This document shows positions 33,284 to 45,200 of a stretch of DNA of 64,000 nt, piece by piece; the first letter of the stretch is position 1; each line of letters opens with the position of its first letter. The notes under the pieces were generated by a model that was given only the letters and a program-made list of their open reading frames with translations, was not told where the DNA came from and ran no database searches. Both the position numbers and the translations under genes were made by a program. The stretch covers positions 160,001 to 224,000 of the forward strand of contig CAXXWS020000004.1 in the NCBI GenBank assembly GCA_963665325.3, given 5' to 3'. This DNA is from Alphaproteobacteria bacterium. GTDB taxonomy: Bacteria > Pseudomonadota > Alphaproteobacteria > Bin95.

Positions 33284-33520
33284 ATGGCGCTTCACCAGAT
33301 TCTCGCCCTTGCCGTCCTCATCGCGCTCGGCATTGCAGTGGACGCCGCCGTGAGGCTCGTGCGCGCGAAGAAGCGCCCCGGCACCGACACGGCATGGCAG
33401 CGCAAACGCCTGGCCCTCTTCCTCGCGGTCTTCCTGGCGTTGGCGGCGGCATTCCTGACGATCAACCCGGACAGTCCGGGGACGCCGCAAAGCCTGTCGT
33501 CCGAAGGAGTATCCGAATGA
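33284..33520 (+). CDS. Small two-TM membrane protein
   Basis: Two hydrophobic segments; stop overlaps the ATG of the deaminase gene. Confidence 0.5.
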   Translation: MALHQILALAVLIALGIAVDAAVRLVRAKKRPGTDTAWQRKRLALFLAVFLALAAAFLTINPDSPGTPQSLSSEGVSE

Positions 33521-34512
33521 CGGAACACGACGCCTGGCTGGCCGGCCTGCCGAAGGCGGAACTGCACCTGCATCTGGAGGGCGCCATCCCGCTGCCGGCG
33601 CTGTTCGAGCTGGTCGAGGCCGCCGGTGGGGACCCGGCCGTGCCGACCGTTGAGGCATTGCGGGACCGCCTTGCCTATCCCGATTTCCCGGCCTTCATCG
33701 ACGCCTGGATCTGGAAGAACGGTTTCCTGCGGACCTACGGCGACTTCACTTTCATCGCCGAGGCCGTCGCCAAAGACCTTGCGCGCCAGAACATCCGCTA
33801 TGCGGAACTGTTCTTCTCGCCCGGCAGGTTTGCGGACCGGGGGCTGACGACTGCCGGTCTGGCAGCGGCCATCCGCAGCGGCTTCGACCGGGTTCCGGAG
33901 GTGACGCTCTACCTGATCGCCGATCTCGTTCGCGACCTCGGGCCGCAAAATGCGGCAAGGACGCTTGCCGAGGTCGTGGAAGTCGCGGGCGAAGCCGGCA
34001 TTCCGGGTATCGGCATCGGCGGCTCCGAACATCTCTATCCGCCCGAACCCTTTGCCGCCGTCTATGAGGAGGCCCGCAAGGCGGGGCTGCGCACAAGCGC
34101 CCATGCCGGCGAGGCGGCCGGGGCCAAGAGCGTCCGCGGGGCGGTGGAGGCGCTGCGGGTGGACCGCATCGGCCATGCGCTCCGCGCGGAAGAGGACGAG
34201 GCGGTGGTCGATCTGCTGGCGCGCAGCGGTGTCGTGCTCGAACTCTGTCCGCTTTCGAATCTCGCCACCGGCGTCATCGGGCGGATCGAGGACCATCCGG
34301 TGCGCCGCTACTGGGGGCGCGGCCTCAACATCACGATCAACACCGACGACCCGGGCATGTTCCACAACAGCCTCGCCGGCGAATACGCCGTGCTGATGGA
34401 TGTCTTCGGGTTCGGCCGCGATGAAATCCGGCGTCTGGCCGCCGCCGCTCTGGAGGGCGCCTGGTGCGGGCCGGACGAGAAGGCGAAGCTGCGTCCGCTT
34501 TTCGCCGCTTGA
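33517..34512 (+). CDS. add: Adenosine/adenine deaminase
   Basis: LPKAELHLHLEG, HAGE, RIGH, CPLSN, NTDDP. Confidence 0.9.
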   Translation: MTEHDAWLAGLPKAELHLHLEGAIPLPALFELVEAAGGDPAVPTVEALRDRLAYPDFPAFIDAWIWKNGFLRTYGDFTFIAEAVAKDLARQNIRYAELFFSPGRFADRGLTTAGLAAAIRSGFDRVPEVTLYLIADLVRDLGPQNAARTLAEVVEVAGEAGIPGIGIGGSEHLYPPEPFAAVYEEARKAGLRTSAHAGEAAGAKSVRGAVEALRVDRIGHALRAEEDEAVVDLLARSGVVLELCPLSNLATGVIGRIEDHPVRRYWGRGLNITINTDDPGMFHNSLAGEYAVLMDVFGFGRDEIRRLAAAALEGAWCGPDEKAKLRPLFAA

Positions 34513-34547
34513 CCCGCACCGTCCGGACTTGCCACTAATCGGGCTGC

Positions 34548-34642
34548 GGAGGGGAATCCGGTCCGGTGGCCGGCTCGGTCTTCAAAACCGCTGCGGCGGC
34601 GCATCGCTGCCAGGTGGGTTCGACTCCCACTCTCCTCCGCCA
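34548..34642 (+). tRNA. selC: tRNA-Sec (anticodon UCA)
   Basis: 95 nt; 8-bp acceptor stem GGAGGGGA/TCTCCTCC; anticodon loop CTTCAAA; long variable arm; GGTTCGACTCC T-arm; encoded GCCA end. Confidence 0.95.
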
Positions 34643-34820
34643 GTCCGGGCGTATGCAGACATCTCGTTTGGATTTGCATCCGCTGCGCCCGCCGGGCCGA
34701 CCGCACCGCACTCCGCGCCGCTTTCGCCACTTCCGCCCGGGTCCGCAGCTGCCCGCGTTGTTTTCCACAAGATGATGACTCATTGGTTCTGAAATTTGGT
34801 AATATTTCCCAAAACAGGAC

Positions 34821-34847
34821 TTGACCCTCAGGAAATTATGCTAAGAT
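34821..34847 (+). promoter_or_regulatory. Putative promoter of element copy A
   Basis: TTGACC-N15-TAAGAT with a TGn extended -10, in AT-rich context; same architecture in copy B. Confidence 0.55.
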
Positions 34848-34854
34848 AGGTCCA

Positions 34855-35060
34855 AGGGAGGTGGCGTCCGCGCGGACCGCTTCCCTTCGCGTCGGCCCGG
34901 CGCGGAACGACCCCGATTCAGCAGACAGGTGAAGTGCGCCCTCCGGCTCGCGCGCGCAATCAGGCGCGCGAACCGCGCCGGCGCCAACACGCGCCCGCGC
35001 CCGCCCGCGATACGCGCGAAACAGGGTCGTTCCCCGCCGGGGCGGCCTGTCTGTCCGTCA
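34855..35060 (+). ncRNA. Candidate structured RNA of unknown family (copy A)
   Basis: Collinear homology with 43255-43445 (-); conserved hairpins; identical 21-mer CGCGATACGCGCGAAACAGGG; long-range helix with compensatory changes. Confidence 0.6.
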
Positions 35061-35146
35061 ACGCCGTCCCCGCCGGCCCGGCGCGGTCCCGCACCGCAGC
35101 CGGGCTTCCGGTATCGAACGCCAGCGGAACGAAGGAGCCGCACCCC

Positions 35147-36127
35147 ATGCCCATCATCCAACCCGCCGTCGCGCTGTCCACACGCCAGGAGGCCTTCTGC
35201 CGCCACTATGCGGTTTCCGGCAATGCCGCAGACGCTGCAAGGCAGGCGGGCTACTCCGACCGCTCCGCCCGCCAGACCGGCTGCGCCTTATTGGAACGAC
35301 CCTACATTGTGGAACGGCTGCGGCGCATCCGCCTGTCCTGGAAGCGCACCGAGAGGGACGAGGCCCGTATCCTGCTCGCCCGGCTGGAGCAGGCCTGGGA
35401 CGCGGCCGTCGCCAGCGGCTCGGCCTACACGATGCTGCGGGTACTGCGCTTCCAGGCCGAGATTGCAGGGCTTACGGGGCCGACAACCGCGCGCCGTGCG
35501 GGGCTCTGGCCGATGCCGCACGAGGACGAACTCGGCGAGATCGAAGCGGGCGAGGCGCAGGAGGCGGGCACCGAGCCCGGCCCCTTGGCCGAGGCCGTGC
35601 GCAGCGGCCTCGACAGCGCCCGATGCGCGCTCGCGCGGCACCATGCCAGCCGGGAGGAGCTCGAGGCGCAGGAGGGTTTCGACCGGGCCGCGCACGAGGA
35701 AGTTGCCCGCAGGATCGCCGGAGCCGTCGAGGAGCGGACGCGCCTGCCCGTCTGCTTCGAGGCTCCCGCACCGCCCCCGGACGACGACCGGCCCCCCGCC
35801 GACGACCCGCCCGAGGAGACCTACGAGAACTGCCCGTGGGCAGGCGGCGAAGGGTCTGGCGACGAGGACAGGGTCGACGGTGACAGGGCCGACGGCGCCG
35901 AACATGACTGGCTCTACCAGCGCCGCAACGGCTACGCCGAAATCTACGACCCCTGGGCCCCGGAGGAGGTCCGGCAGCGAACGCGGAACCGCCTCGAACG
36001 GGAAGAGCGGGGCAGCGGCGAAGACGGTGACTGGAGTGGACCGGCAACGAAAAAGAATAAGAAGAAGAGGGCAAGGAAGACCGGGCCCGAGGGCGCCGGT
36101 TCCGCGCCGGACCATGACAGAACATGA
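35147..36127 (+). CDS. Protein with N-terminal small-terminase-like (Terminase_2-type HTH) domain and long acidic/low-complexity tail
   Basis: GAAGGAG RBS; LSTRQEAFCRHYAVSGNAADAARQAGYSDRSARQTGCALLERP matches the TerS pattern LT.KQ..F...Y....NA..AA..AGYS...A...G..LL..P. Confidence 0.75.
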   Translation: MPIIQPAVALSTRQEAFCRHYAVSGNAADAARQAGYSDRSARQTGCALLERPYIVERLRRIRLSWKRTERDEARILLARLEQAWDAAVASGSAYTMLRVLRFQAEIAGLTGPTTARRAGLWPMPHEDELGEIEAGEAQEAGTEPGPLAEAVRSGLDSARCALARHHASREELEAQEGFDRAAHEEVARRIAGAVEERTRLPVCFEAPAPPPDDDRPPADDPPEETYENCPWAGGEGSGDEDRVDGDRADGAEHDWLYQRRNGYAEIYDPWAPEEVRQRTRNRLEREERGSGEDGDWSGPATKKNKKKRARKTGPEGAGSAPDHDRT

Positions 36128-36138
36128 CATTGCATGAC
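36113..36138 (+). repeat. Triple CATGAC direct repeat, 10-bp period (copy A end)
   Basis: CATGAC at 36113, 36123 and 36133. Confidence 0.8.
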
Positions 36139-36185
36139 ACTTCCCAAGGGGTCTCCTGCGGCGAGGCCGCGCCATGCCGGGACAG

Positions 36186-36278
36186 CCTCCCTCGCAAGCG
36201 AAGGAGGGAGACAAGGAAGTCAGGCCGGCGCCATGGAATCCCCTCGCCCCGCTTGCGGGGAAAGGCCGGGAGAGGGGC
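36186..36278. repeat. Alphaproteobacterial REP/RIME-like palindromic elements
   Basis: CCTCCCTCGCAAGCGAAGGAGGG and CCCCTCGCCCCGCTTGCGGGGAAAGG...GAGAGGGG; related CCCGCAAGCGGGAGGGGG at ~33172. Confidence 0.55.
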
Positions 36279-36306
36279 CGGCTGGCCGCGCGGCCCCCGC
36301 CGTCGC

Positions 36307-38076
36307 TCAGTGCGAGTGGCGCGGCGGTTCCGCGGCGACGCGGCGGTAGCGGGTGGCGAACTCCAGGCAGCCGCCCTCGGCGAGCTGGCCCACATGGCTG
36401 CGGTAAAGCTCCTCCCAGGGCGTGTGGTTCTCCAGCGCCGGCGGGTCGTAGGCGGCCTGGCGCGCGGCGAGCACCTCTTCGGGAAGCAGGATATCGACGC
36501 GGCGCGTCCGCAGGTCCACCCGCAGCCGGTCGCCCGTTTCCAGTATGGCGAGATTACCGCCGACCGCGCTCTCCGGGCTCGCATTCAGGATCGACGGGCT
36601 GCCCGAAGTGCCGGACTGGCGGCCGTCGCCGATGGTCGGCAATTCGGTGACGCCGGCGCGGATGAGGGCCGCGGGCGGCTGCATATTGACGACTTCCGCC
36701 GAGCCCGGATAGCCGACCGGCCCGGCGCCGCGCATCACCAGTATGCAGGTTCCGTCGATGCCGAGCGCCGGGTCGTCGAGGCGCGCGTGGTAGTCCTCCG
36801 GCCCGTCGAACACGATGGCCTTGCCCTCGAAGGCGTCAGGGTCGTCCGGGTTCGAGAGGAACCGGGCGCGGAACTCCTCGGAGATCACGCTGGTTTTCAT
36901 CACCGCGGCGTCGAACAAATTGCCGCCCATGACGACGAAGCCGGCGCGCTCCTTCAGCGGCTGTCCCCAGGGGCGGATCACGTCCTCGTCGAGCGGCGCG
37001 GCATCGCCGATATTCTCTTCGATGGTCTTGCCCGTGACGGTGAGCGCGTCCGGGTTCAGCTTCCCGGCGCGCAGCAGCTCGCCCATGACAGCGGGCACGC
37101 CGCCCGCCCGGTGGTAGTCCTCGGCCAGATAGTCGCCGGCCGGCTGGCAGTTGACCAGGAGCGGGATGTCGTAGCCGCACTCCTGCCAGTCCTCCAATAC
37201 CAGTTCGACGCCCATATGGCGCGCGATGGCGTTGATGTGGATCGGCGCGTTTGTGGACCCGCCGATGGCGCTGTTGACCGTGATCGCGTTCTCGAAGGCG
37301 GCGCGGGTCAGGATGCGGTCGGGCGTCAGGTCCTCGTGGATCATGGCGACGATGCGCCGCCCGGTTTCATAGGCGTATTGCGCGCGCTCCTTGTGCGGGG
37401 CGGGCGGTGCGGCGGAGCCCGGCAGCGACATGCCGAGCGCCTCGGCGAGCGAGTTCATCGTCGTCGCCGTGCCCATGGTGTTGCAGTGGCCGGGGCTCGG
37501 CGCCGAGGAGGCCACCATCTCGATGAACTCCTCATAGCCGATCTCGCCCGCCGCCTGGAGCTTGCGCGCCTCCCAGACGATGGTGCCGGAACCGACGCGC
37601 CTGCCCTTCCACCAGCCGTTGAACATCGGCCCGCCATTGAGCGAGATCGCCGGCAGGTTCGCCGTCGCCGCCGCCATGATCATCGCCGGCGTGGTCTTGT
37701 CGCAGCCCGTGGTCAGGATCACCCCGTCGATGGGATAGCCGTGAAGCACCTCGACCAGACCCAGATAGGCGAGGTTGCGGTCGATGGCGGCGGTCGGGCG
37801 GCGCCCGCTCTCCTGGATCGGGTGTACCGGGAACTCGATGGCGATGCCGCCCGCCTCGCGGATGCCGGCGCGCATGCGCTCCGCCAGGCTCTGGTGGATG
37901 CGGTTGCAGGGCGAGAGGTCGGAGCCGGTCTGCGCGATGCCGACGATGGGCTTGCCGGACTGCAACTCCTCCCGCGTGATGCCGTAGTTCATGTACCGCT
38001 CGATATACATGGCGGTCATGCCCGGATCGTGCGGGTCGTTGAACCAACTCCGGCTGCGCAACTGCTTCCCGGCCAT
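36307..38076 (-). CDS. IlvD/Edd-family sugar-acid dehydratase (xylonate dehydratase-like)
   Basis: LRSRSWF, PCN, GCDKTTP, GHCNTMGTA, IGGSTN, GDGRQSGTS. Confidence 0.9.
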   Translation of the reverse strand: MAGKQLRSRSWFNDPHDPGMTAMYIERYMNYGITREELQSGKPIVGIAQTGSDLSPCNRIHQSLAERMRAGIREAGGIAIEFPVHPIQESGRRPTAAIDRNLAYLGLVEVLHGYPIDGVILTTGCDKTTPAMIMAAATANLPAISLNGGPMFNGWWKGRRVGSGTIVWEARKLQAAGEIGYEEFIEMVASSAPSPGHCNTMGTATTMNSLAEALGMSLPGSAAPPAPHKERAQYAYETGRRIVAMIHEDLTPDRILTRAAFENAITVNSAIGGSTNAPIHINAIARHMGVELVLEDWQECGYDIPLLVNCQPAGDYLAEDYHRAGGVPAVMGELLRAGKLNPDALTVTGKTIEENIGDAAPLDEDVIRPWGQPLKERAGFVVMGGNLFDAAVMKTSVISEEFRARFLSNPDDPDAFEGKAIVFDGPEDYHARLDDPALGIDGTCILVMRGAGPVGYPGSAEVVNMQPPAALIRAGVTELPTIGDGRQSGTSGSPSILNASPESAVGGNLAILETGDRLRVDLRTRRVDILLPEEVLAARQAAYDPPALENHTPWEELYRSHVGQLAEGGCLEFATRYRRVAAEPPRHSH

Positions 38077-38184
38077 GAGACGCTCTCCCCTCTGCTTGAG
38101 GCCGCGAGGGTAGCGAAGCGTTTTGCCGCCGGGAAGGCGTGCGTTACAATCCGGCGCGCGACAGGACGGGGGCCGGGAACGGTC

Positions 38185-39126
38185 ATGCAGGGAATGCGGG
38201 TAACGGTATTCGGCGGCGCCGGGTTCGTCGGGCGCTACATCGTCAAGCGGCTCGCGGCGGCGGGCGCCGGCGTCCGGGTCGCATGCCGGGACCCGGAACG
38301 GGCGAAGTTCCTGAAGCCTGCAGGCGACGTCGGCCAGGTCGTGCCGGTGCAGGCCAATCTGCGCTATCCGGAGAGCGTGCGCGCGGCGGTCGAGGGCGTC
38401 GATGCGGTCGTCAATTGCGTGGGCGTTCTGGCGAGCCGGGGGCCGCAGTCCTTCTCGGCGATCCATGCGGCGGGCGCGGGCACGGTCGCCTCCGCTTCCG
38501 CCGAGGCCGGCGTCGGCAAGCTCGTGCATATCTCCGCCATCGGGGCGGATGCGGACTCCACGGCGGCATATGCCCGCTCCAAGGCGGCGGGCGAGGCCGC
38601 GATGCGCGAGGCCTTCGCGCATGCCGCGATCCTGAGGCCGAGCCTCGTAATCGGGCCGGAGGACGACTTCTTCAACCGGTTCGCGCTCATGGCCCGGCTG
38701 CTCCCGGCGCTGCCGCTGATCGGCGGTGGCCTCACGCGCTTCCAGCCGGCCTATGTCGGCGATGTGGCCGATGCGGCGGTCGCGGCGCTCGACCGGGCGG
38801 GCGGCCTGTTCGAGCTTGGCGGGCCGAAGGTCTATTCGTTCAGGCAGTTGATGGAATTGCTGCTCGCCGAGATCGGCCGCAAGCGCCTGCTGGTGCCGGT
38901 GCCGTTCCAGATCATGCAGGCCAAGGCCGCCTTCATCCAGTTCTTGCCCGGCGCGCCGATCACGCCGGACCAGGTCGAATTGCTGAAATACGACAATGTC
39001 GTGTCCGAGGGCGCGGCCGGCTTTGCGGAGCTCGGCATCGAGCCGAGGGACATCGAAACTGTCATCCCCACCTATCTCGACCGCTTCCGCATCCGGGGCC
39101 GCTTCGCCGGGCGCGATCCGGCCTGA
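38185..39126 (+). CDS. Complex I NDUFA9-like NAD(P)-dependent epimerase/SDR
   Basis: VTVFGGAGFVGRY, HISAIGAD, YARSK, FFNRFA, FQPAYVGDVA. Confidence 0.88.
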   Translation: MQGMRVTVFGGAGFVGRYIVKRLAAAGAGVRVACRDPERAKFLKPAGDVGQVVPVQANLRYPESVRAAVEGVDAVVNCVGVLASRGPQSFSAIHAAGAGTVASASAEAGVGKLVHISAIGADADSTAAYARSKAAGEAAMREAFAHAAILRPSLVIGPEDDFFNRFALMARLLPALPLIGGGLTRFQPAYVGDVADAAVAALDRAGGLFELGGPKVYSFRQLMELLLAEIGRKRLLVPVPFQIMQAKAAFIQFLPGAPITPDQVELLKYDNVVSEGAAGFAELGIEPRDIETVIPTYLDRFRIRGRFAGRDPA

Positions 39127-40022
39127 CGCTGCAAGCGGTAAACCGGCCCGCCGGAGGGCGCGAGGCCCGCGCCATCGCGGCGGCGCTCGTGGCAATGGTG
39201 TTCTGGGGCGCCTGGTTTCCGCTGTCGCGCCTTTCCGTCACCGAGTCGATCACGCCCGAGGACCTCGCCATCCTGCGGGTGGGCGTGCCGGCCGTGCTGC
39301 TGCTGCCGGTAGCGCTCCGGTTGGGCTTCAAGGCCGGCAAGGCGGGCTGGTGGGGGACGGCGGCGATGGCCGGGACCATCGGCATCCCCTTCGCGCTGGT
39401 GCTCGGCACGGGCCTGCTCCACGCCCCGGCCGCTCACGCCGCGATCTTCATTCCCGGCACCTTTCCGGCCCTTACCGCGCTGCTCGGCATCCTGCTGCTG
39501 CGCGAGCGGGCCGGCGGACTGAGGCTCACGGGCGTCGGCCTGACCGTGGCCGGCGTCGGCCTGACCGCCCTTTCCGCGCTGCAGGACGCGCCGCCGGGCG
39601 GCCTCGGCGGCTACGCGCTGTTCCATCTGGGCGCCTGGATGTGGGCCATCTACACGGTGACGGCGCGCCGGGCCGAGGTCTCGCCGCTCCACGCGGCAGC
39701 GATCCTTTCCACCGTTTCGACGGCGGCCTTCCTGCCGCTCTTCCTGCTGTTCGGCGAGAGCCGGCTGCTGGAGATTCCCCTGGCCTCCCTGGCCTGGCAG
39801 GCCCTTGTCCACGGCGTTCTGGGCGGCATCGTCTCGATCTGGCTCTACAGCTACGCCATCGGCGTGCTGGGCGCAGGCCGTACCGGCGTCTTCGCGGGCC
39901 TGGTGCCGGGCCTCGGCGCGCTGTTCTCCGCGCTGCTGCTCGGCGAGAGCCTCGCCTGGCCGGAGCTCGCGGGCCTCGCGATCGTCACCGCCGGCATCGT
40001 CATGGTGCAGGCGGGGCGGTAG
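39123..40022 (+). CDS. DMT/EamA-family transporter (start uncertain)
   Basis: About 10 TM segments with two EamA repeats (LLRER, LLGE). Confidence 0.8.
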   Translation: MTLQAVNRPAGGREARAIAAALVAMVFWGAWFPLSRLSVTESITPEDLAILRVGVPAVLLLPVALRLGFKAGKAGWWGTAAMAGTIGIPFALVLGTGLLHAPAAHAAIFIPGTFPALTALLGILLLRERAGGLRLTGVGLTVAGVGLTALSALQDAPPGGLGGYALFHLGAWMWAIYTVTARRAEVSPLHAAAILSTVSTAAFLPLFLLFGESRLLEIPLASLAWQALVHGVLGGIVSIWLYSYAIGVLGAGRTGVFAGLVPGLGALFSALLLGESLAWPELAGLAIVTAGIVMVQAGR

Positions 40023-40918: not shown

Positions 40919-42270
40919 CCGCGCGGCGGAAGGCCGGCGAGCAGGCGGTCCACCATCTCCGGCGCCTCGCCCACATAGTTGCCGGGCTCGCAAAGCTGCG
41001 CGAGTGCGTCGCGGTCGAGCTTGGCCGTTACCTCAGGCATGTCCAGCAGCACGTCCAGCAGGGCGCGACGCTCGTCGGTCGCGATACGGCAGGCTTCATA
41101 GACGAGGTCGTGCGCCGCCTGCCGGCCGAGTGCGGGCGCAAGGCCCATCATCACCGCTTCGGAGACGATCAGCCCGCGCGTCATGTCCATATTGGCCCGC
41201 ATGGCTTCCGGATTGACGCGCAGGCCGTCCATCAGGAAACGCGCCTGGGCAAGCGCGCCGGACGCCAGCACGAAGGCTTCCGGAAGCGCCGCCCATTCCA
41301 CGTGCCACGGCCCGGTGGAGCGCTCAAGGTCGGCTGCCATTGCGTCCATGACAAGGGCGGCCCGGCTCTGGACCTGCTTGGCGCAGGCGAGAATGAGTTC
41401 GCTGGAGACCGGGTTGCGCTTCTGCGGCATGGTGGAGGACCCGCCGCGGCCGGGCGCGAAGGGTTCGAAGACCTCGCCCGTCTCGGTCGCGGTCAGCAGC
41501 ACCACGTCGGTCGCGATCTTGGCGAGCGAGCCGGTGACGAGCGCGAGGAAGGCCAGCGTCTCGGCGATGGTGTCGCGCGCGGTGTGCCAGGCGATGGCGG
41601 GCCGGGCGAGGCCGAGCTCCTCCATCAGCGCGTCCGAAACTTCCAGTCCCCGGCCGTGCAGCGAAGCGAGCGTTCCGGCCGCGCCCGAGAACTGGCCCAT
41701 GAGCACGCGCGGACGCAATTGTTCGAGCCGCTCCAGATGGCGCTCGATCGGCGCCAGCCACACCGCCGCCTTGTAGCCGAAGGTGATGGGGAGCGCGTGC
41801 TGGAGGTGCGAGCGCCCGGCCATTGGCGTGTCGCGATATTTGCGGGCAAGGCGCGCAAGGCCGTCCCGGACGGCGATGAGGTCCGCTTCCACAAGGTCGA
41901 GCGCATCGCGGATCTGGAGCACGACGCCCGTGTCCTTGATGTCCTGCGTGGTCGTGCCCCAATGGACGTAGCGTCCCGCATCCCCCTCGCAGAGCGCGGC
42001 AAGGCGGTGCACCAGCGGCATGATGGCGTAGCCGACGCGGTCGACCTCCTCGCGCATGAGGTCCATGTCGATCAGGTCCGCGTCCGCCTTGCCGGAAATC
42101 TGGGCCGCCGCGTCCTCCGGGATTATTCCGAGCCGGCCCTGGACCCGGGCCAGCGCCGCCTCGACATCCAGCCATTTCTGCACTTGGCCGCGCTCGGAAA
42201 ACACCGCCCGCATCGCGTCCGAGCCGAAGAGGTTCCCGTAGATCCCGCTGTCGATGATGGAGACTGGCAT
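40915..42270 (-). CDS. Fumarase-superfamily lyase (3-carboxy-cis,cis-muconate cycloisomerase/adenylosuccinate lyase-like)
   Basis: HWGTTTQD, GRSHLQHALPITFG, GGSSTMPQKRNP. Confidence 0.85.
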   Translation of the reverse strand: MPVSIIDSGIYGNLFGSDAMRAVFSERGQVQKWLDVEAALARVQGRLGIIPEDAAAQISGKADADLIDMDLMREEVDRVGYAIMPLVHRLAALCEGDAGRYVHWGTTTQDIKDTGVVLQIRDALDLVEADLIAVRDGLARLARKYRDTPMAGRSHLQHALPITFGYKAAVWLAPIERHLERLEQLRPRVLMGQFSGAAGTLASLHGRGLEVSDALMEELGLARPAIAWHTARDTIAETLAFLALVTGSLAKIATDVVLLTATETGEVFEPFAPGRGGSSTMPQKRNPVSSELILACAKQVQSRAALVMDAMAADLERSTGPWHVEWAALPEAFVLASGALAQARFLMDGLRVNPEAMRANMDMTRGLIVSEAVMMGLAPALGRQAAHDLVYEACRIATDERRALLDVLLDMPEVTAKLDRDALAQLCEPGNYVGEAPEMVDRLLAGLPPRG

Positions 42271-42403
42271 TGCCCCGCATTCCCCCGCTGCCGCCGGCGC
42301 GCGCAGCCTAGAGCGTTTCGCGCCACGCCGAAATCGCCCGGCGCTTGCGGGCCCGGTAGTGCAAAGGCAGTCTATCGGAGCAATTGCGGAGGGAAGCCGG
42401 GCG

Positions 42404-43108
42404 ATGGTGAAAGCGCTCCTGTTCGATGTGTTCGGCACGGTGGTGGACTGGCGGGGATCGGTAGCGCGCGAGGCGCGCAAGGCGCTGGCGCCGAAGGGCT
42501 ACGACCTCGACTGGCACGGTTTCGCGCGGCGCTGGCGGGACCGCTACCAACCCGCGATGGAGGAGGTCCGCAGCGGGGCGAGGCCCTACACCATCCTCGA
42601 CGTGCTGCACCGGGAGAATCTGGAGGCCCTGCTTGAGGAGTTCGGCGTGGCCGGCCTGAGCGAGGCCGAGAAGGACGATCTCAACCGCGCCTGGCACCGG
42701 CTGGACCCGTGGCCGGACGCGGTGCTGGGCCTTACACGGCTCAAGCGCAAATTCATCGTCGGCACCTGCTCCAACGGCAATATCGCGCTCATGGTGAACA
42801 TGGCCCGCCATGCGCGACTGCCCTGGGACGCGATCCTGGGGGCGGAGGTCGCCCGGGCCTACAAGCCGCAGCCGGACGCCTACCGCCTGAGCTGCGAGGC
42901 GCTCGGCCTCGCGCCGGAGGAAGCGATGATGACGGCCGCCCACAATGGCGACCTGCACGCCGCGGCCGCGCAGGGCATGGCGACGGCGTTCGTGGCGCGA
43001 CGAACCGAACACGGTCCCGGCCAGACGACGGACCTCGAGGCCGACCCCGGATTTACCGTTGTCGCGGAAGACTTCATCGACCTCGCGGACCGGCTCGGCT
43101 GCCCCTGA
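42404..43108 (+). CDS. Haloacid dehalogenase type II
   Basis: LFDVFGTVVDW, SNGN, YKP, AAHNGDL. Confidence 0.88.
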   Translation: MVKALLFDVFGTVVDWRGSVAREARKALAPKGYDLDWHGFARRWRDRYQPAMEEVRSGARPYTILDVLHRENLEALLEEFGVAGLSEAEKDDLNRAWHRLDPWPDAVLGLTRLKRKFIVGTCSNGNIALMVNMARHARLPWDAILGAEVARAYKPQPDAYRLSCEALGLAPEEAMMTAAHNGDLHAAAAQGMATAFVARRTEHGPGQTTDLEADPGFTVVAEDFIDLADRLGCP

Positions 43109-43138
43109 CGGCGCGCGGCGGAAAGGCCCCACCGCGAT

Positions 43139-43164
43139 GTCATGATGTGTCATGTTTCGTCATG
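43139..43164 (-). repeat. Triple CATGAC direct repeat, 10-bp period (copy B end)
   Basis: GTCATG on the + strand at 43139, 43149 and 43159. Confidence 0.8.
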
Positions 43165-43222
43165 GTTCGGCGGCTGGCGGCCGGCGCTCCGGGTCTTCCG
43201 TCCGGTTTCCTGTTTTCGCCAT
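43160..43222 (-). CDS. 20-aa residual ORF of element copy B (MAKTGNRTEDPERRPPAAEP)
   Basis: GAAAGGAGAG RBS; same position as the TerS-like ORF of copy A; stop lies in the first CATGAC. Confidence 0.35.
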   Translation of the reverse strand: MAKTGNRTEDPERRPPAAEP

Positions 43223-43254
43223 GGTCTCTCCTTTCCGTCCGTCTTCGTTCCACT

Positions 43255-43445
43255 TCCGCCGCCGACAGTTTGCCCGAGCGGCGGGTCCCTGTTTCGCGCG
43301 TATCGCGCGCGGGAGGGCGCGCCCGTTAGCGCCGGCGCGCAGGAACCCAGGCGCAGGACGCACGTCACCCGTCGGTTTAATGGGGGTCTTTTTTCGCGCC
43401 GGCGCGAAACGGGAAAGGAAGCGGCTCCGCGGACACCGCCTCCTT
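43255..43445 (-). ncRNA. Candidate structured RNA of unknown family (copy B)
   Basis: Homologous to 34855-35060; see findings. Confidence 0.6.
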
Positions 43446-43457
43446 CCTCCTCGCTCC

Positions 43458-43484
43458 ATACTACCACAGATATTCTGAGGTCAA
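43458..43484 (-). promoter_or_regulatory. Putative promoter of element copy B
   Basis: TTGACC-N15-TAGTAT with a TGn extended -10; AT-rich upstream. Confidence 0.55.
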
Positions 43485-43618
43485 GAAAAATTAGGAATTA
43501 TTGCGAAATATTTTAGAACAAGAATCAACCTGCACGCTCCAGGCGGCGCGCCGAGAAAGGAAAATTCCGGAATCTCGCGCCGGCCCCCATTATCGGGTCC
43601 GGTCGGGGACCGTCCGGG

Positions 43619-44206
43619 TCAGGCGGCCAGCGCCTCCTCGACGAAGTCGAGCCGGTCCTGGCCGAAGAACATCTCGTCGCCGACGAAGAAGGTGGGCGCG
43701 CCAAACACGCCGCGCGCCACCGCCTCTTCGGTATTGGCGATCAATTGCTGCTTGATCCCCGGCTCCTGCGTGGCGGCGAACAGCGCATCGGCGTCGAGTC
43801 CGGCGGCAGTGACGACCTCGCGCAGCACATCGAGGTCGCCGGTGTTCCTGCCCTCGACCCACATCGCCGTGAACACGGCATCGGCATAGGTCTTGAAATA
43901 GCCGTCGCGCTGGGCGGCGAGGCAGCCGCGCATGAGGCCGAGCGTCATGATCGGGAAGAACGGGTTGCGCTGGAACGGCACGCCGTAGCGTTTGGCGAAA
44001 CGTGGAAGGTCGATGCCGTAATAGGCGGACTTGGCCTCCACGGTGCCCGGCGGCGTATTGCCCGTCGCCTTGAAGATGCCGCCGAGCAGCATCGGCTTCC
44101 AGGCGATCTCCGCTCCGGTGCGCTCGGCGATGCCGGGCATCTGCGTGTGGGCGAGATAAGCGGTCGGCGAGCCGACATCGAACCAGAATTCAAGGCGTTT
44201 CGGCAT
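43619..44206 (-). CDS. 2-hydroxychromene-2-carboxylate isomerase/kappa-GST (DsbA family)
   Basis: [36 protein letters not shown]. Confidence 0.88.
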
Positions 44207-44357
44207 GGGGGTGTCCCGTCTCCTCGGCGTTCGCCGGACTATAGCGGTTATGCAGCGGCTGGAAACGCCCTTCGCCTGTTGCAGAGAGGTCGCCGCATTG
44301 ACAGGACAGGCCGGTTCGGGAATGGTCCGGGGCCTTTTTCGGGGGGAGGGATCGCGC

Positions 44358-45200
44358 ATGTCGGACGGGACGATGCAAGCCGCCATCGACCGCGCCTGGG
44401 AGGACCGGGCCGGGATCGGGCCGGACACGAAAGGCGAGGCGCGCGAGGCCATCGAGGCGGCGCTCGACGCGCTCGACCGCGGCGAGGTGCGCGTCGCCGA
44501 GAAGGCGGACGGCGCATGGCATGTCCATCAATGGTGCAAGAAGGCGGTGCTGCTCTCCTTCCGGCTCGCCGATTCCGCCCCGGTCTCCGGCGGGCCGGAC
44601 GGCGCGCCCTGGTACGACAAGGTGCCCTCCAAGTTCGAGGGCTGGGACGCGGCCCGCTTCGCCGAGGCCGGCTTCCGCGCCGTGCCCAACTGCGCCGTCC
44701 GGCACTCGGCCTATATCGCGCCCGGCGCCGTGCTGATGCCCTGCTTCGTGAATGTCGGGGCCTGGGTCGGCGAGAACACGATGATCGACACTTGGTCCAC
44801 GGTCGGCTCCTGCGCCCAGGTGGGCGCCAACTGCCACATCTCCGGCGGCGTCGGGCTCGGCGGCGTGCTGGAGCCGCTCCAGGCAGAGCCGGTGATCGTC
44901 GAGGACAACTGCTTCATCGGCGCGCGCAGCGAGGTCGTGGAAGGCGTGATCGTCGGCGAGGGCGCGGTTCTCGCCATGGGCACCTTCATCTCCGCCACCA
45001 CCAAGATCGTGAACCGGGACACGGGCGAGGTGCATACGGGCCGCGTGCCGCCCTACGCCGTGGTCGTGCCGGGAAGCCTGCCGGGCCGGCCGCTGCCGGA
45101 CGGCAGCCCGGGGCCGAACCTCTCCTGCGCCGTCATCGTGAAGACGGTGGACGCGCAGACCCGCGCCAAGACGGCCATCAACGACCTGCTGCGCGACTGA
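44358..45200 (+). CDS. dapD: Tetrahydrodipicolinate N-succinyltransferase
   Basis: [38 protein letters not shown]. Confidence 0.95.

Follow-up and report, generated by a model that had tools for sequence, protein, structure and literature searches.

Two intergenic regions in the stretch of DNA analysed here, called copies A and B, are on balance best read as belonging to a family of selfish DNA elements, dispersed and cassette-like, that is restricted to one genus and comes in autonomous-looking and non-autonomous forms. The stretch, hereafter the window (64,000 nt), is C5:160001–224000 of the source genome, G000, which comprises 5.58 Mb at 67% GC on five contigs (C1–C5); other genomes of the genus are labelled G0xx. 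An initial annotation of the window, made from the sequence alone, had described an element present twice that carries an open reading frame (ORF) for a protein like phage small terminases (TerS). Present twice holds within the window; genome-wide, by contrast, there are 70 matches to the leader of A and 71 copies with a 5′ end, that is, about 70 copies rather than two. The collinear homology of A and B that the annotation had reported is borne out, as 34760–35160 (+) and 43200–43560 (−) align with a mean column identity of 75% over 427 columns, and the 21-mer, the triple CATGAC, the promoter-like hexamers and the other motifs that it gave all lie where it had placed them. Both the 21-mer and the triple CATGAC with 4-nt spacers have two matches in the window, compared with 0.00 expected in each case (100 shuffles), and in A and B alike the second hexamer is preceded directly by TGn, as in an extended −10 element.

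A multicopy family with full-length and internally deleted members

The 70 leader matches (nhmmer) are spread over four of the five contigs, and a profile built from 37 short copies gives 104 matches in the genome, including the 71 with a 5′ end. As shown by an exact motif search, a CATGAC array follows most leaders within 1.8 kb (a triple in 46, a double in 16, none in 8). Five of the eight leaders without a near array have one 2.2–40 kb further on, and in four of these five the halves are split by a ∼40-kb integrase island, an insertion sequence (IS) of the IS110 type, an element that we take to be IS1595-like, or other genes. The distance from the 5′ motif to the array is 320–580 nt in most copies. 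Five copies, A among them, are full-length (∼1.35 kb); they are 85–93% identical and each has the 326-codon ORF intact. This complete form consists of an AT-rich, promoter-like 5′ end, a ∼300-nt GC-rich non-coding segment, the ORF and the 3′ CATGAC array, and the family's 5′ boundary motif, TTTGTTC (TTGGTTC in A), lies ∼38 nt upstream of the −35-like hexamer of A. Family-wide, neighbouring CATGAC motifs are 10 nt, or one helical turn, apart in 134 of 134 adjacent pairs; arrays contain three (46 arrays), two (30) or four (4) motifs, and duplicated arrays stand 31 or 41 nt apart, again near whole helical turns. Whichever ORF precedes the array takes its final residues (..HDxx) and its stop codon from it.

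The distinction drawn in the initial annotation between a full form (A) and a reduced form (B) extends to the family, in which B and about 65 other copies are deletion derivatives. In the short copies an internal part has been deleted and both ends remain, as in the non-autonomous copies of a mobile element. B retains the final ∼50 nt of the TerS ORF together with the array, and the peptide of its remnant ORF differs between the orthologous copies in G000 and G011, that is, it is not conserved. Another copy, at C3:1324791–1325168, encodes 125 aa that join the N-terminal helix-turn-helix (HTH) start to the C-terminal end of the ORF, and N-terminal-only and C-terminal-only ORF fragments are frequent in the genomes of the genus.

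Of 16 further genomes of the genus, 13 contain the leader, with many of the draft-genome matches at contig ends; it was found in none of 8 genomes of two sister genera and in none of 16 from other families of the class. Within the genus, 6 of 10 sampled genomes gave matches to the protein (in one as fragments only); among these ten it was found neither in the three leader-less genomes (G001, G003 and G014) nor in G009, which has leader matches only. In G000, Terminase_2 is confined to the five full-length copies and one fragment. Across GTDB genomes, the protein has 94 tblastn-confirmed places, up to about ten per genome, in hosts that are all uncultured Alphaproteobacteria or Rhodospirillaceae, at least one of them named after a sponge, and the protein collection holds at least 360 homologues, of which the named ones are annotated "terminase small subunit." The plasmid collection gave no blastn match to A. 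Among public runs, the family is seen, as assembled contigs, in sponge metagenomes, in coded organisms and in a single run with the label viral metagenome. Relatives in other genera have a promoter-like AT-rich region directly before the ORF and keep three or four CnTGAC at 10-nt spacing at its end. These relatives lack the GC-rich segment. That segment is therefore an addition in this genus, and the remaining parts of the element (protein, promoter region and phased repeats) are old. In the portions of the full-text literature that were available, no description of such an element was found.

The ORF product resembles phage small terminases

The TerS-like nature of the ORF in A is supported by a match of Pfam Terminase_2 (PF03592) to residues 11–80 at 48.1 bits (cut-off 26.1), covering profile positions 2–71 of 141 only, and by matches to PHROG terminase-small-subunit families (PHROG_51, E 3.5e-14). 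The top matches of Foldseek in the PDB are 4zc3, 2cmp (the SF6 small-terminase DNA-binding domain) and 3zqq (full-length SPP1-like), followed by the PaP3 and NV1 small terminases. The TM score to the target is 0.82–0.85 for 4zc3 and 2cmp over the DNA-binding domain, with weak E-values and most of the model unmatched, and 3zqq aligns over 125 columns with 26% identity and a root-mean-square deviation of 7.6. Similarly, 55 phage records match residues ∼10–127 only, and the 15 records listed all match at terminase small subunit genes. In IMG/VR we found no close relative of the protein (4 loci, 31–33% identity, HTH only). Judged from these sequence and fold comparisons, the first ∼110 residues are predicted to form a small-terminase DNA-binding domain of the SPP1/SF6 G1P type, with an HTH and a long helix.

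The AlphaFold model is confident only at residues ∼10–110 and 146–199 (mean predicted local distance difference test score [pLDDT] 63). In an alignment with relatives from other genera residues ∼10–200 are conserved, and the C-terminal third is variable and of low complexity. Comparison of the five copies in this genome gives a dN/dS of 0.21 overall, with 0.05 for residues 1–110, 0.26 for 111–200 and 0.36 for 201 to the end, and these low values argue that the TerS-like gene is maintained by selection. When four copies of residues 1–205 were modelled together, the median of the interface score ipSAE was 0.56, compared with 0.01 for the best of three controls; the predicted contact is made via helices 60–110, with at least 72% of contacts in common between runs and a partner pLDDT of at least 72. 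Of the proteins used for calibration, 20 of 30 solved as one-chain pairs and 1 of 23 solved as single chains came up to the mark; as this calibration used two copies and another kind of alignment, the counts apply only roughly. The predicted self-association may reflect the likeness of the protein to solved TerS rings or oligomers.

Copies differ in presence between sister genomes and follow stop codons

Comparison with sister genomes revealed that copies are not fixed at syntenic positions: three have empty sites. B is present in G000 and G011 and absent from G016, G005 and G008, where the flanking genes are ∼10–25 nt apart; the copy at C5:314235 is present in G000 and G011, and its site is empty in G010, G004, G002 and G012; and the site of the copy at C5:331956 is empty in G013. 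At all three resolved sites the inserted block begins 0–1 nt past the stop codon of a co-oriented upstream gene and the native spacer is retained downstream of the element, and no target-site duplication was seen in any of the three comparisons. At C5:331956, the piece that touches the stop codon is a different repeat of 206 nt and not the family element. The annotation's view of a dispersed, probably selfish unit is upheld.

No terminal inverted repeats were seen at the sites compared, the 5′ end (TTTGTTC...CTTGAC) being unrelated to the 3′ CATGAC array, and an end similarity of at most 6–7 nt (CCGGAA/TTCCGG) was noted by eye in a subset of copies. Comparison between paralogues places the 3′ end ∼10 nt past the last CATGAC and the 5′ end ∼20–35 nt upstream of TTTGTTC. 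Crude in-house gene calls were made around 61 copies with defined ends. Among copies whose two neighbours share one direction, 26 are co-oriented with them and 6 opposed (binomial p = 5e-4). Of 39 cases with a co-oriented upstream gene, 17 have its stop codon no more than 50 nt away from the element.

The 206-nt repeat occurs at C5:331966–332171 and C1:2495038–2495243; the two are 99% identical, have palindromes (GTCATCCCGGAC...) like those of repetitive extragenic palindromic sequences, and lie between a stop codon and an element copy. Palindromes of the form "gtcatttcgaccgg" that resemble them flank TerS-like genes in other genera.

G013 contains about ten full-length copies that are ∼90–95% alike, as read from the column-identity profile. 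A itself lies at a synteny break: its tRNA-Sec and dehydratase flanks are apart in G011, G013 and G016 (33400–37600 of the window compared), and in at least G011 and G016 each separated flank has an element copy of its own nearby. Other copies also coincide with rearrangements, e.g. G000 C1:846500–862500, and a broad synteny search around two further copies returned rearranged flanks and no clean empty site. These breaks suggest that copies have recombined with one another or that the same spacers have been used repeatedly.

The GC-rich core is conserved in sequence rather than in fold

An alignment of 55 copies anchored on the promoter-like motif shows conservation of CTTGAC and TGnTAnnAT. 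A consensus sigma-70 scan, which accepts spacers of 16–18 nt only, does not call this motif, the spacer of which is 15 nt. In the ∼110-nt core, column identity is mostly 90–100% across copies, and it has the highest summed contig depth of the stretch in two DNA runs. Of the structured leader proposed in the initial annotation, only the first hairpin stood: it is the sole helix with GC↔AU exchanges, which occur at 4 pairs (111 distinct copies), and among the predicted pairs of the core none of 16 has a compensatory change (28 copies at 28 loci in several genomes). Compared with shuffled sequences, the single-sequence folds of A and B give modest z-scores of −2.43 and −1.65. Rfam 15, searched to E 10, has only tRNA-Sec above gathering in the window and its best sub-threshold matches at E of at least 1.5, so that the element matches no Rfam family; the annotation, too, had recognised no riboswitch in it. 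No terminator was found inside A. By sequence comparison, the core behaves as a conserved DNA sequence rather than a conserved fold.

Other cargo and secondary insertions

In some copies an alternative cargo lies in the same frame between leader and array, namely an isochorismatase gene (Pfam) in one copy and a second cargo family in three (C4:289622–290185, C3:952388–952846 and C1:399400–399873). The latter encodes 107–187 aa starting MTATDPRP.., without a Pfam match or a usable match in the protein Atlas; its copies differ at the 5′ end, where the TTTGTTC and GAAAAATTCC motifs have changed places, and one is frameshifted. It may mark a sister element family. In all cargo variants the ORF ends in ..HDxx and takes its stop codon from the repeats.

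In agreement with the initial annotation, no transposase, integrase or reverse transcriptase is regular cargo of the copies; the long copies encode the TerS-like protein only, and no search for Y1/Y2 HUH transposases was made. An island of ∼40 kb (C1:776913–817357) sits in the conserved core of one copy between 11-nt direct repeats, ACACGCGATAC, that overlap the 21-mer, and a 397-aa tyrosine integrase of the P4 type (Arm-DNA-bind_3 and Phage_integrase) starts ∼50 nt past the truncated leader of this split copy. Another truncated copy (C4:14298–14534) is followed by an ORF of equal length with identical first 80 residues. The element family thus serves as a multi-copy attachment site. The IS110 transposase gene (DEDD_Tnp_IS110 and Transposase_20) and the presumed IS1595-like ORF, inside the copies at C1:1919235–1920662 and C4:317084–318145, are secondary insertions between leader and array. 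In 14 copies the terminal repeat of an IS3 element (TGGAGTGGGCCCC) is found 8 nt past the last CATGAC, and the IS continues for at least 120 nt in two of them; the arrays are either a preferred IS3 target or next to an inherited scar. The IS3 transposase was rejected as the mobiliser of the family, as the repeat points away from the element and so belongs to the downstream IS or a remnant of it. The IS3-family terminal repeat TGGAGTGGGCCCCTGGG.. occurs at 33 sites in the genome, e.g. C1:1379548 and C5:314700.

Candidate partners and other origins

No large terminase (TerL) adjoins any copy, the neighbours of A and B being housekeeping genes, and PF03354 has no match in the genome. A resident gene transfer agent was rejected as partner, since neither GTA_TIM nor an HK97 capsid is matched in the genome. 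A Mu-like prophage has its head module at C1:470000–489000 (locus L107), with a T4-type large terminase, Mu portal, Mu-like protease I, gpT capsid and phage lysozyme; its Mu F-like protein (717 aa) has a C-terminal ADP-ribosyltransferase domain (Pfam ART, ADPrib_exo_Tox). That the element is a miniature of this prophage was rejected, as the genome-wide list has no CATGAC arrays near it.

We also rejected the idea that the copies are upstream regions of a paralogous gene family, because the downstream genes are unrelated and both copies in the window face convergent genes. The 10-nt spacing of the array puts ATG and TGA in every frame, and in 13 copies the downstream ORF is open from a repeat ATG, which is about what chance would give in GC-rich DNA (an estimated ∼47% of ∼30 co-oriented cases). 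A function of the array as a three-frame start/stop adaptor for translational fusion was likewise rejected, as the ATG is not conserved (CCTGAC/CGTGAC in other genera).

Copies A and B in the window

As shown in Table 1, A and B have corresponding parts on opposite strands.

Table 1. Parts of element copies A and B, with window positions
Feature	Position (nt)	Strand	Basis or remark
Copy A, full-length form, ∼1.37 kb	34783–36150	+	One of 5 full-length copies; 5′ edge approximate
Promoter-like motif of A, TTGACC-N15-(TGc)TAAGAT	34821–34847	+	Read from sequence; conserved in family; preceded by AT-rich 34783–34820
First hairpin of A, GGGAGGTGGCG...CGCTTCCC	34854–34887	+	Present in minimum-free-energy and centroid folds
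Most conserved GC-rich core of A, including 21-mer (35006–35026)	34925–35033	+	Column identity across copies
Small-terminase-like ORF of A (P0002), 326 aa	35147–36127	+	Pfam Terminase_2; stop is the TGA of the second CATGAC
3′ array of A, three CATGAC at 10-nt spacing	36113–36138	+	Exact motif search
Copy B, internal-deletion (non-autonomous) form	43125–43535	−	Collinear with A; block missing in sister genomes ∼43125–43617
Promoter-like motif of B, TTGACC-N15-(TGg)TAGTAT	43458–43484	−	Read from sequence; conserved in family
21-mer of B, identical to that of A	43287–43307	−	Exact search
Remnant ORF of B, 20 codons	43160–43222	−	Ends at the TGA of the first CATGAC
3′ array of B, three CATGAC	43139–43164	−	Exact motif search

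Pfam matches and codon-position GC agree with the annotation that both copies sit among ordinary, unrelated genes. Upstream of A are an adenosine deaminase gene (33394–34512, +) and a tRNA-Sec gene (34548–34642, +; Rfam), and downstream is a convergent dihydroxy-acid/6-phosphogluconate dehydratase gene (36307–39195, −). B lies between a DsbA-like gene (43619–44452, −) and a convergent HAD hydrolase gene (42254–43108, +). The tRNA-Sec (anticodon TCA, Rfam 72.6 bits) is 140 nt upstream of A, and at the orthologous tRNA-Sec flank an element copy is found at most ∼350 nt downstream in G016 and at most ∼2.2 kb downstream in G011.

Two long open frames, 36124–39126 (+) and 42308–43153 (−), were rejected as genes, being antisense to or overlapping the real convergent genes. 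They comprise 1000 and 281 codons and have ATG starts within the CATGAC arrays, where automatic annotation could mis-call them. Long ORFs that start in CATGAC triples are artefacts of GC-rich DNA.

How the family may spread

If A and B belong to a family of selfish DNA elements, as we favour, the element would spread as DNA. The TerS-like protein would self-associate and bind the phased repeat array, perhaps also the conserved core, and the bound protein would mark the element ends for a DNA-cutting and -joining activity that the element does not encode; the partner could be a phage large terminase, or a recombinase of the host or of an IS. The conserved promoter would express the protein and would read out of the element toward the downstream gene. 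Several points weigh against this reading. Binding of the protein to the repeats is deduced from the architecture only, the model is of low confidence at residues 111–145 and 202–253, the C-terminal third is poorly conserved, and no known DNA-breaking or -joining fold is encoded by the element. The sole large terminase found in the genome (PF03237) is that of the Mu-like prophage on C1, and no markers of a gene transfer agent were found, as described above. The promoter-like motif is a putative promoter only, with an atypical spacer of 15 nt, and in two metatranscriptome runs of one study the family is seen as short contig pieces only (the ORF 3′ region and ends), which may be DNA carry-over. 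The ends are fuzzy, as the missing block includes ∼95 unique nt 5′ of B and ∼30 extra nt 3′ of C5:314235. The resolved insertion sites number only three, and the empty sites could in principle be deletions. Finally, the copies in this genome are old, with a median pairwise identity of 0.67, a median of 0.79 to the nearest neighbour and none of 66 at 0.95 or above.

A bolder form of the same reading, which is tentative and in our judgement somewhat unlikely, is that the family represents a new class of mobile element, the sole protein of which is a domesticated small terminase. It would assemble on the helically phased end repeats and depend on a borrowed nuclease or packaging motor (a phage large terminase), by which the cassette would be cut, moved or transduced. 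The copies could instead be sites resembling the packaging site (pac) of a phage, with or without their own TerS, to which a phage large terminase is recruited at ∼70 places so that host DNA and element are packaged and transduced, possibly sabotaging the phage. In SPP1-like phages, pac is located directly upstream of the TerS gene, which it overlaps, and contains bent AT-rich DNA as well as short boxes in helical phase. Over residues ∼10–125 the protein of the element is truly homologous to TerS of the SPP1/SF6 G1P type, and it is modelled as self-associating; its ORF is flanked by an AT-rich 5′ region, a conserved core free of covariation and repeats phased at 10 nt; and the short forms keep exactly these non-coding parts. 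In the run labelled a viral metagenome, 0.24 of the words sampled are present, as are numerous contig pieces of the family; this share is no evidence of packaging, as viromes commonly contain bacterial DNA and contigs cannot show DNA ends. We nevertheless regard pac-like sites as an unlikely, if serious, alternative: no copy has a large terminase next to it, the genome has the one TerL of the Mu-like prophage and neither GTA_TIM nor HK97-capsid matches, the IMG/VR collection gave HTH matches and no close relative, and packaging alone leaves new insertions right after stop codons unexplained.

The ends might also be recognised by a conventional transposase or recombinase encoded elsewhere, such as an HUH, IS110-type or tyrosine enzyme, which would make the elements ordinary passengers of the kind of miniature inverted-repeat transposable elements (MITEs) and the TerS-like gene a cargo that was later mostly deleted. 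Much as in IS200/IS605, IS91 and IS110, no target duplications or inverted repeats are visible, the ends are asymmetric and orientation is biased; other cargo is found in the same frame (isochorismatase in one copy, the 107–187-aa family in three), and the genome has IS110, IS3 and IS1595-like elements. Even so, strong purifying selection acts on the TerS-like gene in all five copies, and this gene is the cargo in every genome where full-length copies are seen. In distant genera, too, the terminal repeats provide its stop codon and final residues, which argues that protein and ends belong together. As no regular transposase cargo was found in searches that did not extend to HUH Y1/Y2 enzymes, and the IS110 and IS1595-like genes are secondary insertions, we consider such passengers quite unlikely. 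Least probable to our minds is the suggestion of the initial annotation that RNA is central, with the promoter giving rise to large amounts of a structured small RNA or leader, which would control the ORF or work in trans, and the repeats serving as RNA motifs. It would fit the conservation of the promoter-like motif in 55 copies and the GC↔AU exchanges in the first hairpin, where G-U variants take up ∼97 cells and A-C variants ∼57 (the copies are related, and the comparison is not a test), as well as the short family pieces in the metatranscriptome runs. P4-type integrases use tRNA and small-RNA genes as attachment sites, and the P4-type integrase island attaches at the conserved core. The core pairs themselves show no compensatory change, the fold z-scores are only modest, Rfam gives no match at gathering or up to E 10, no terminator was found inside A, and the relatives in other genera keep protein and repeats without the GC-rich segment. 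Moreover, because the promoter lies within the repeated unit, the copies were made from DNA and not from a transcript.

Relation to known systems and significance

The element resembles the G1P TerS and pac of SPP1/SF6 in three respects, in that the N-terminal HTH and next helix match (Pfam, PHROG, Foldseek and tblastn), self-association is modelled, and the gene is flanked by helically phased short repeats and AT-rich DNA. In contrast to these phages, it has no adjoining large terminase, portal or capsid gene and is present in ∼70 chromosomal copies rather than one per phage; the C-terminal two thirds of its protein are unlike solved TerS and partly of low complexity, its repeats lie at the 3′ end of the gene, and searches of phage and IMG/VR collections turned up no close relatives. 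Phage satellites with their own TerS (SaPI/PICI, PICMI) are likewise chromosomal elements that encode a small terminase and no large one, and by analogy this suggests that the element might use the packaging motor of a helper. Satellites of the SaPI/PICI type are 5–15 kb, with integrase, replication and regulation modules and one attachment site, whereas the element is 0.35–1.4 kb with one ORF, none of those modules and ∼70 copies. It differs from satellites and prophages also in that the integrase beside two truncated copies belongs to the ∼40-kb island inserted into the element.

The classification of known bacterial insertion sequences is based on their transposase. With IS and MITE families (Correia, RUP, and REPIN with RAYT) the element shares high copy number, intergenic location, restriction to a lineage, short forms made by internal deletion that keep both ends, an outward-reading promoter (putative here) and synteny breaks; unlike them it shows neither terminal inverted repeats nor a target duplication at the three resolved sites and has no recognisable transposase, and it retains a long 5′ end (∼300 nt) and ends 3′ in a direct-repeat array. 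Asymmetric ends, absence of a visible target duplication and orientation bias are shared with IS200/IS605, IS91 and IS110. Group IIC introns insert after terminators, and the element too inserts just downstream of genes; in contrast to all of these, it has no HUH, DEDD or reverse-transcriptase gene and no match to a group II intron in Rfam.

In practical terms, the family is often found at contig ends of the draft genomes of this lineage and coincides with synteny breaks, and "terminase small subunit" annotations that stem from it should not be taken as prophages. Overall, the results describe a populous family with insertion polymorphism and orientation bias, the sole conserved protein of which is nevertheless a homologue of a phage small terminase. 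If the protein acts on the phased repeats, it would either recruit an enzyme in a manner not described for transposons or mark dozens of chromosomal sites for phage packaging, and the latter would amount to a new way of transferring genes, or of interfering with phages, among uncultured Alphaproteobacteria associated with sponges. Should a borrowed motor indeed move the cassette, the placement of insertions exactly behind stop codons would reflect a targeting rule that has not been described in IS families, and ∼70 terminase-recognition sites would make the host genome a packaging substrate, a site-directed counterpart of gene transfer agents and lateral transduction.

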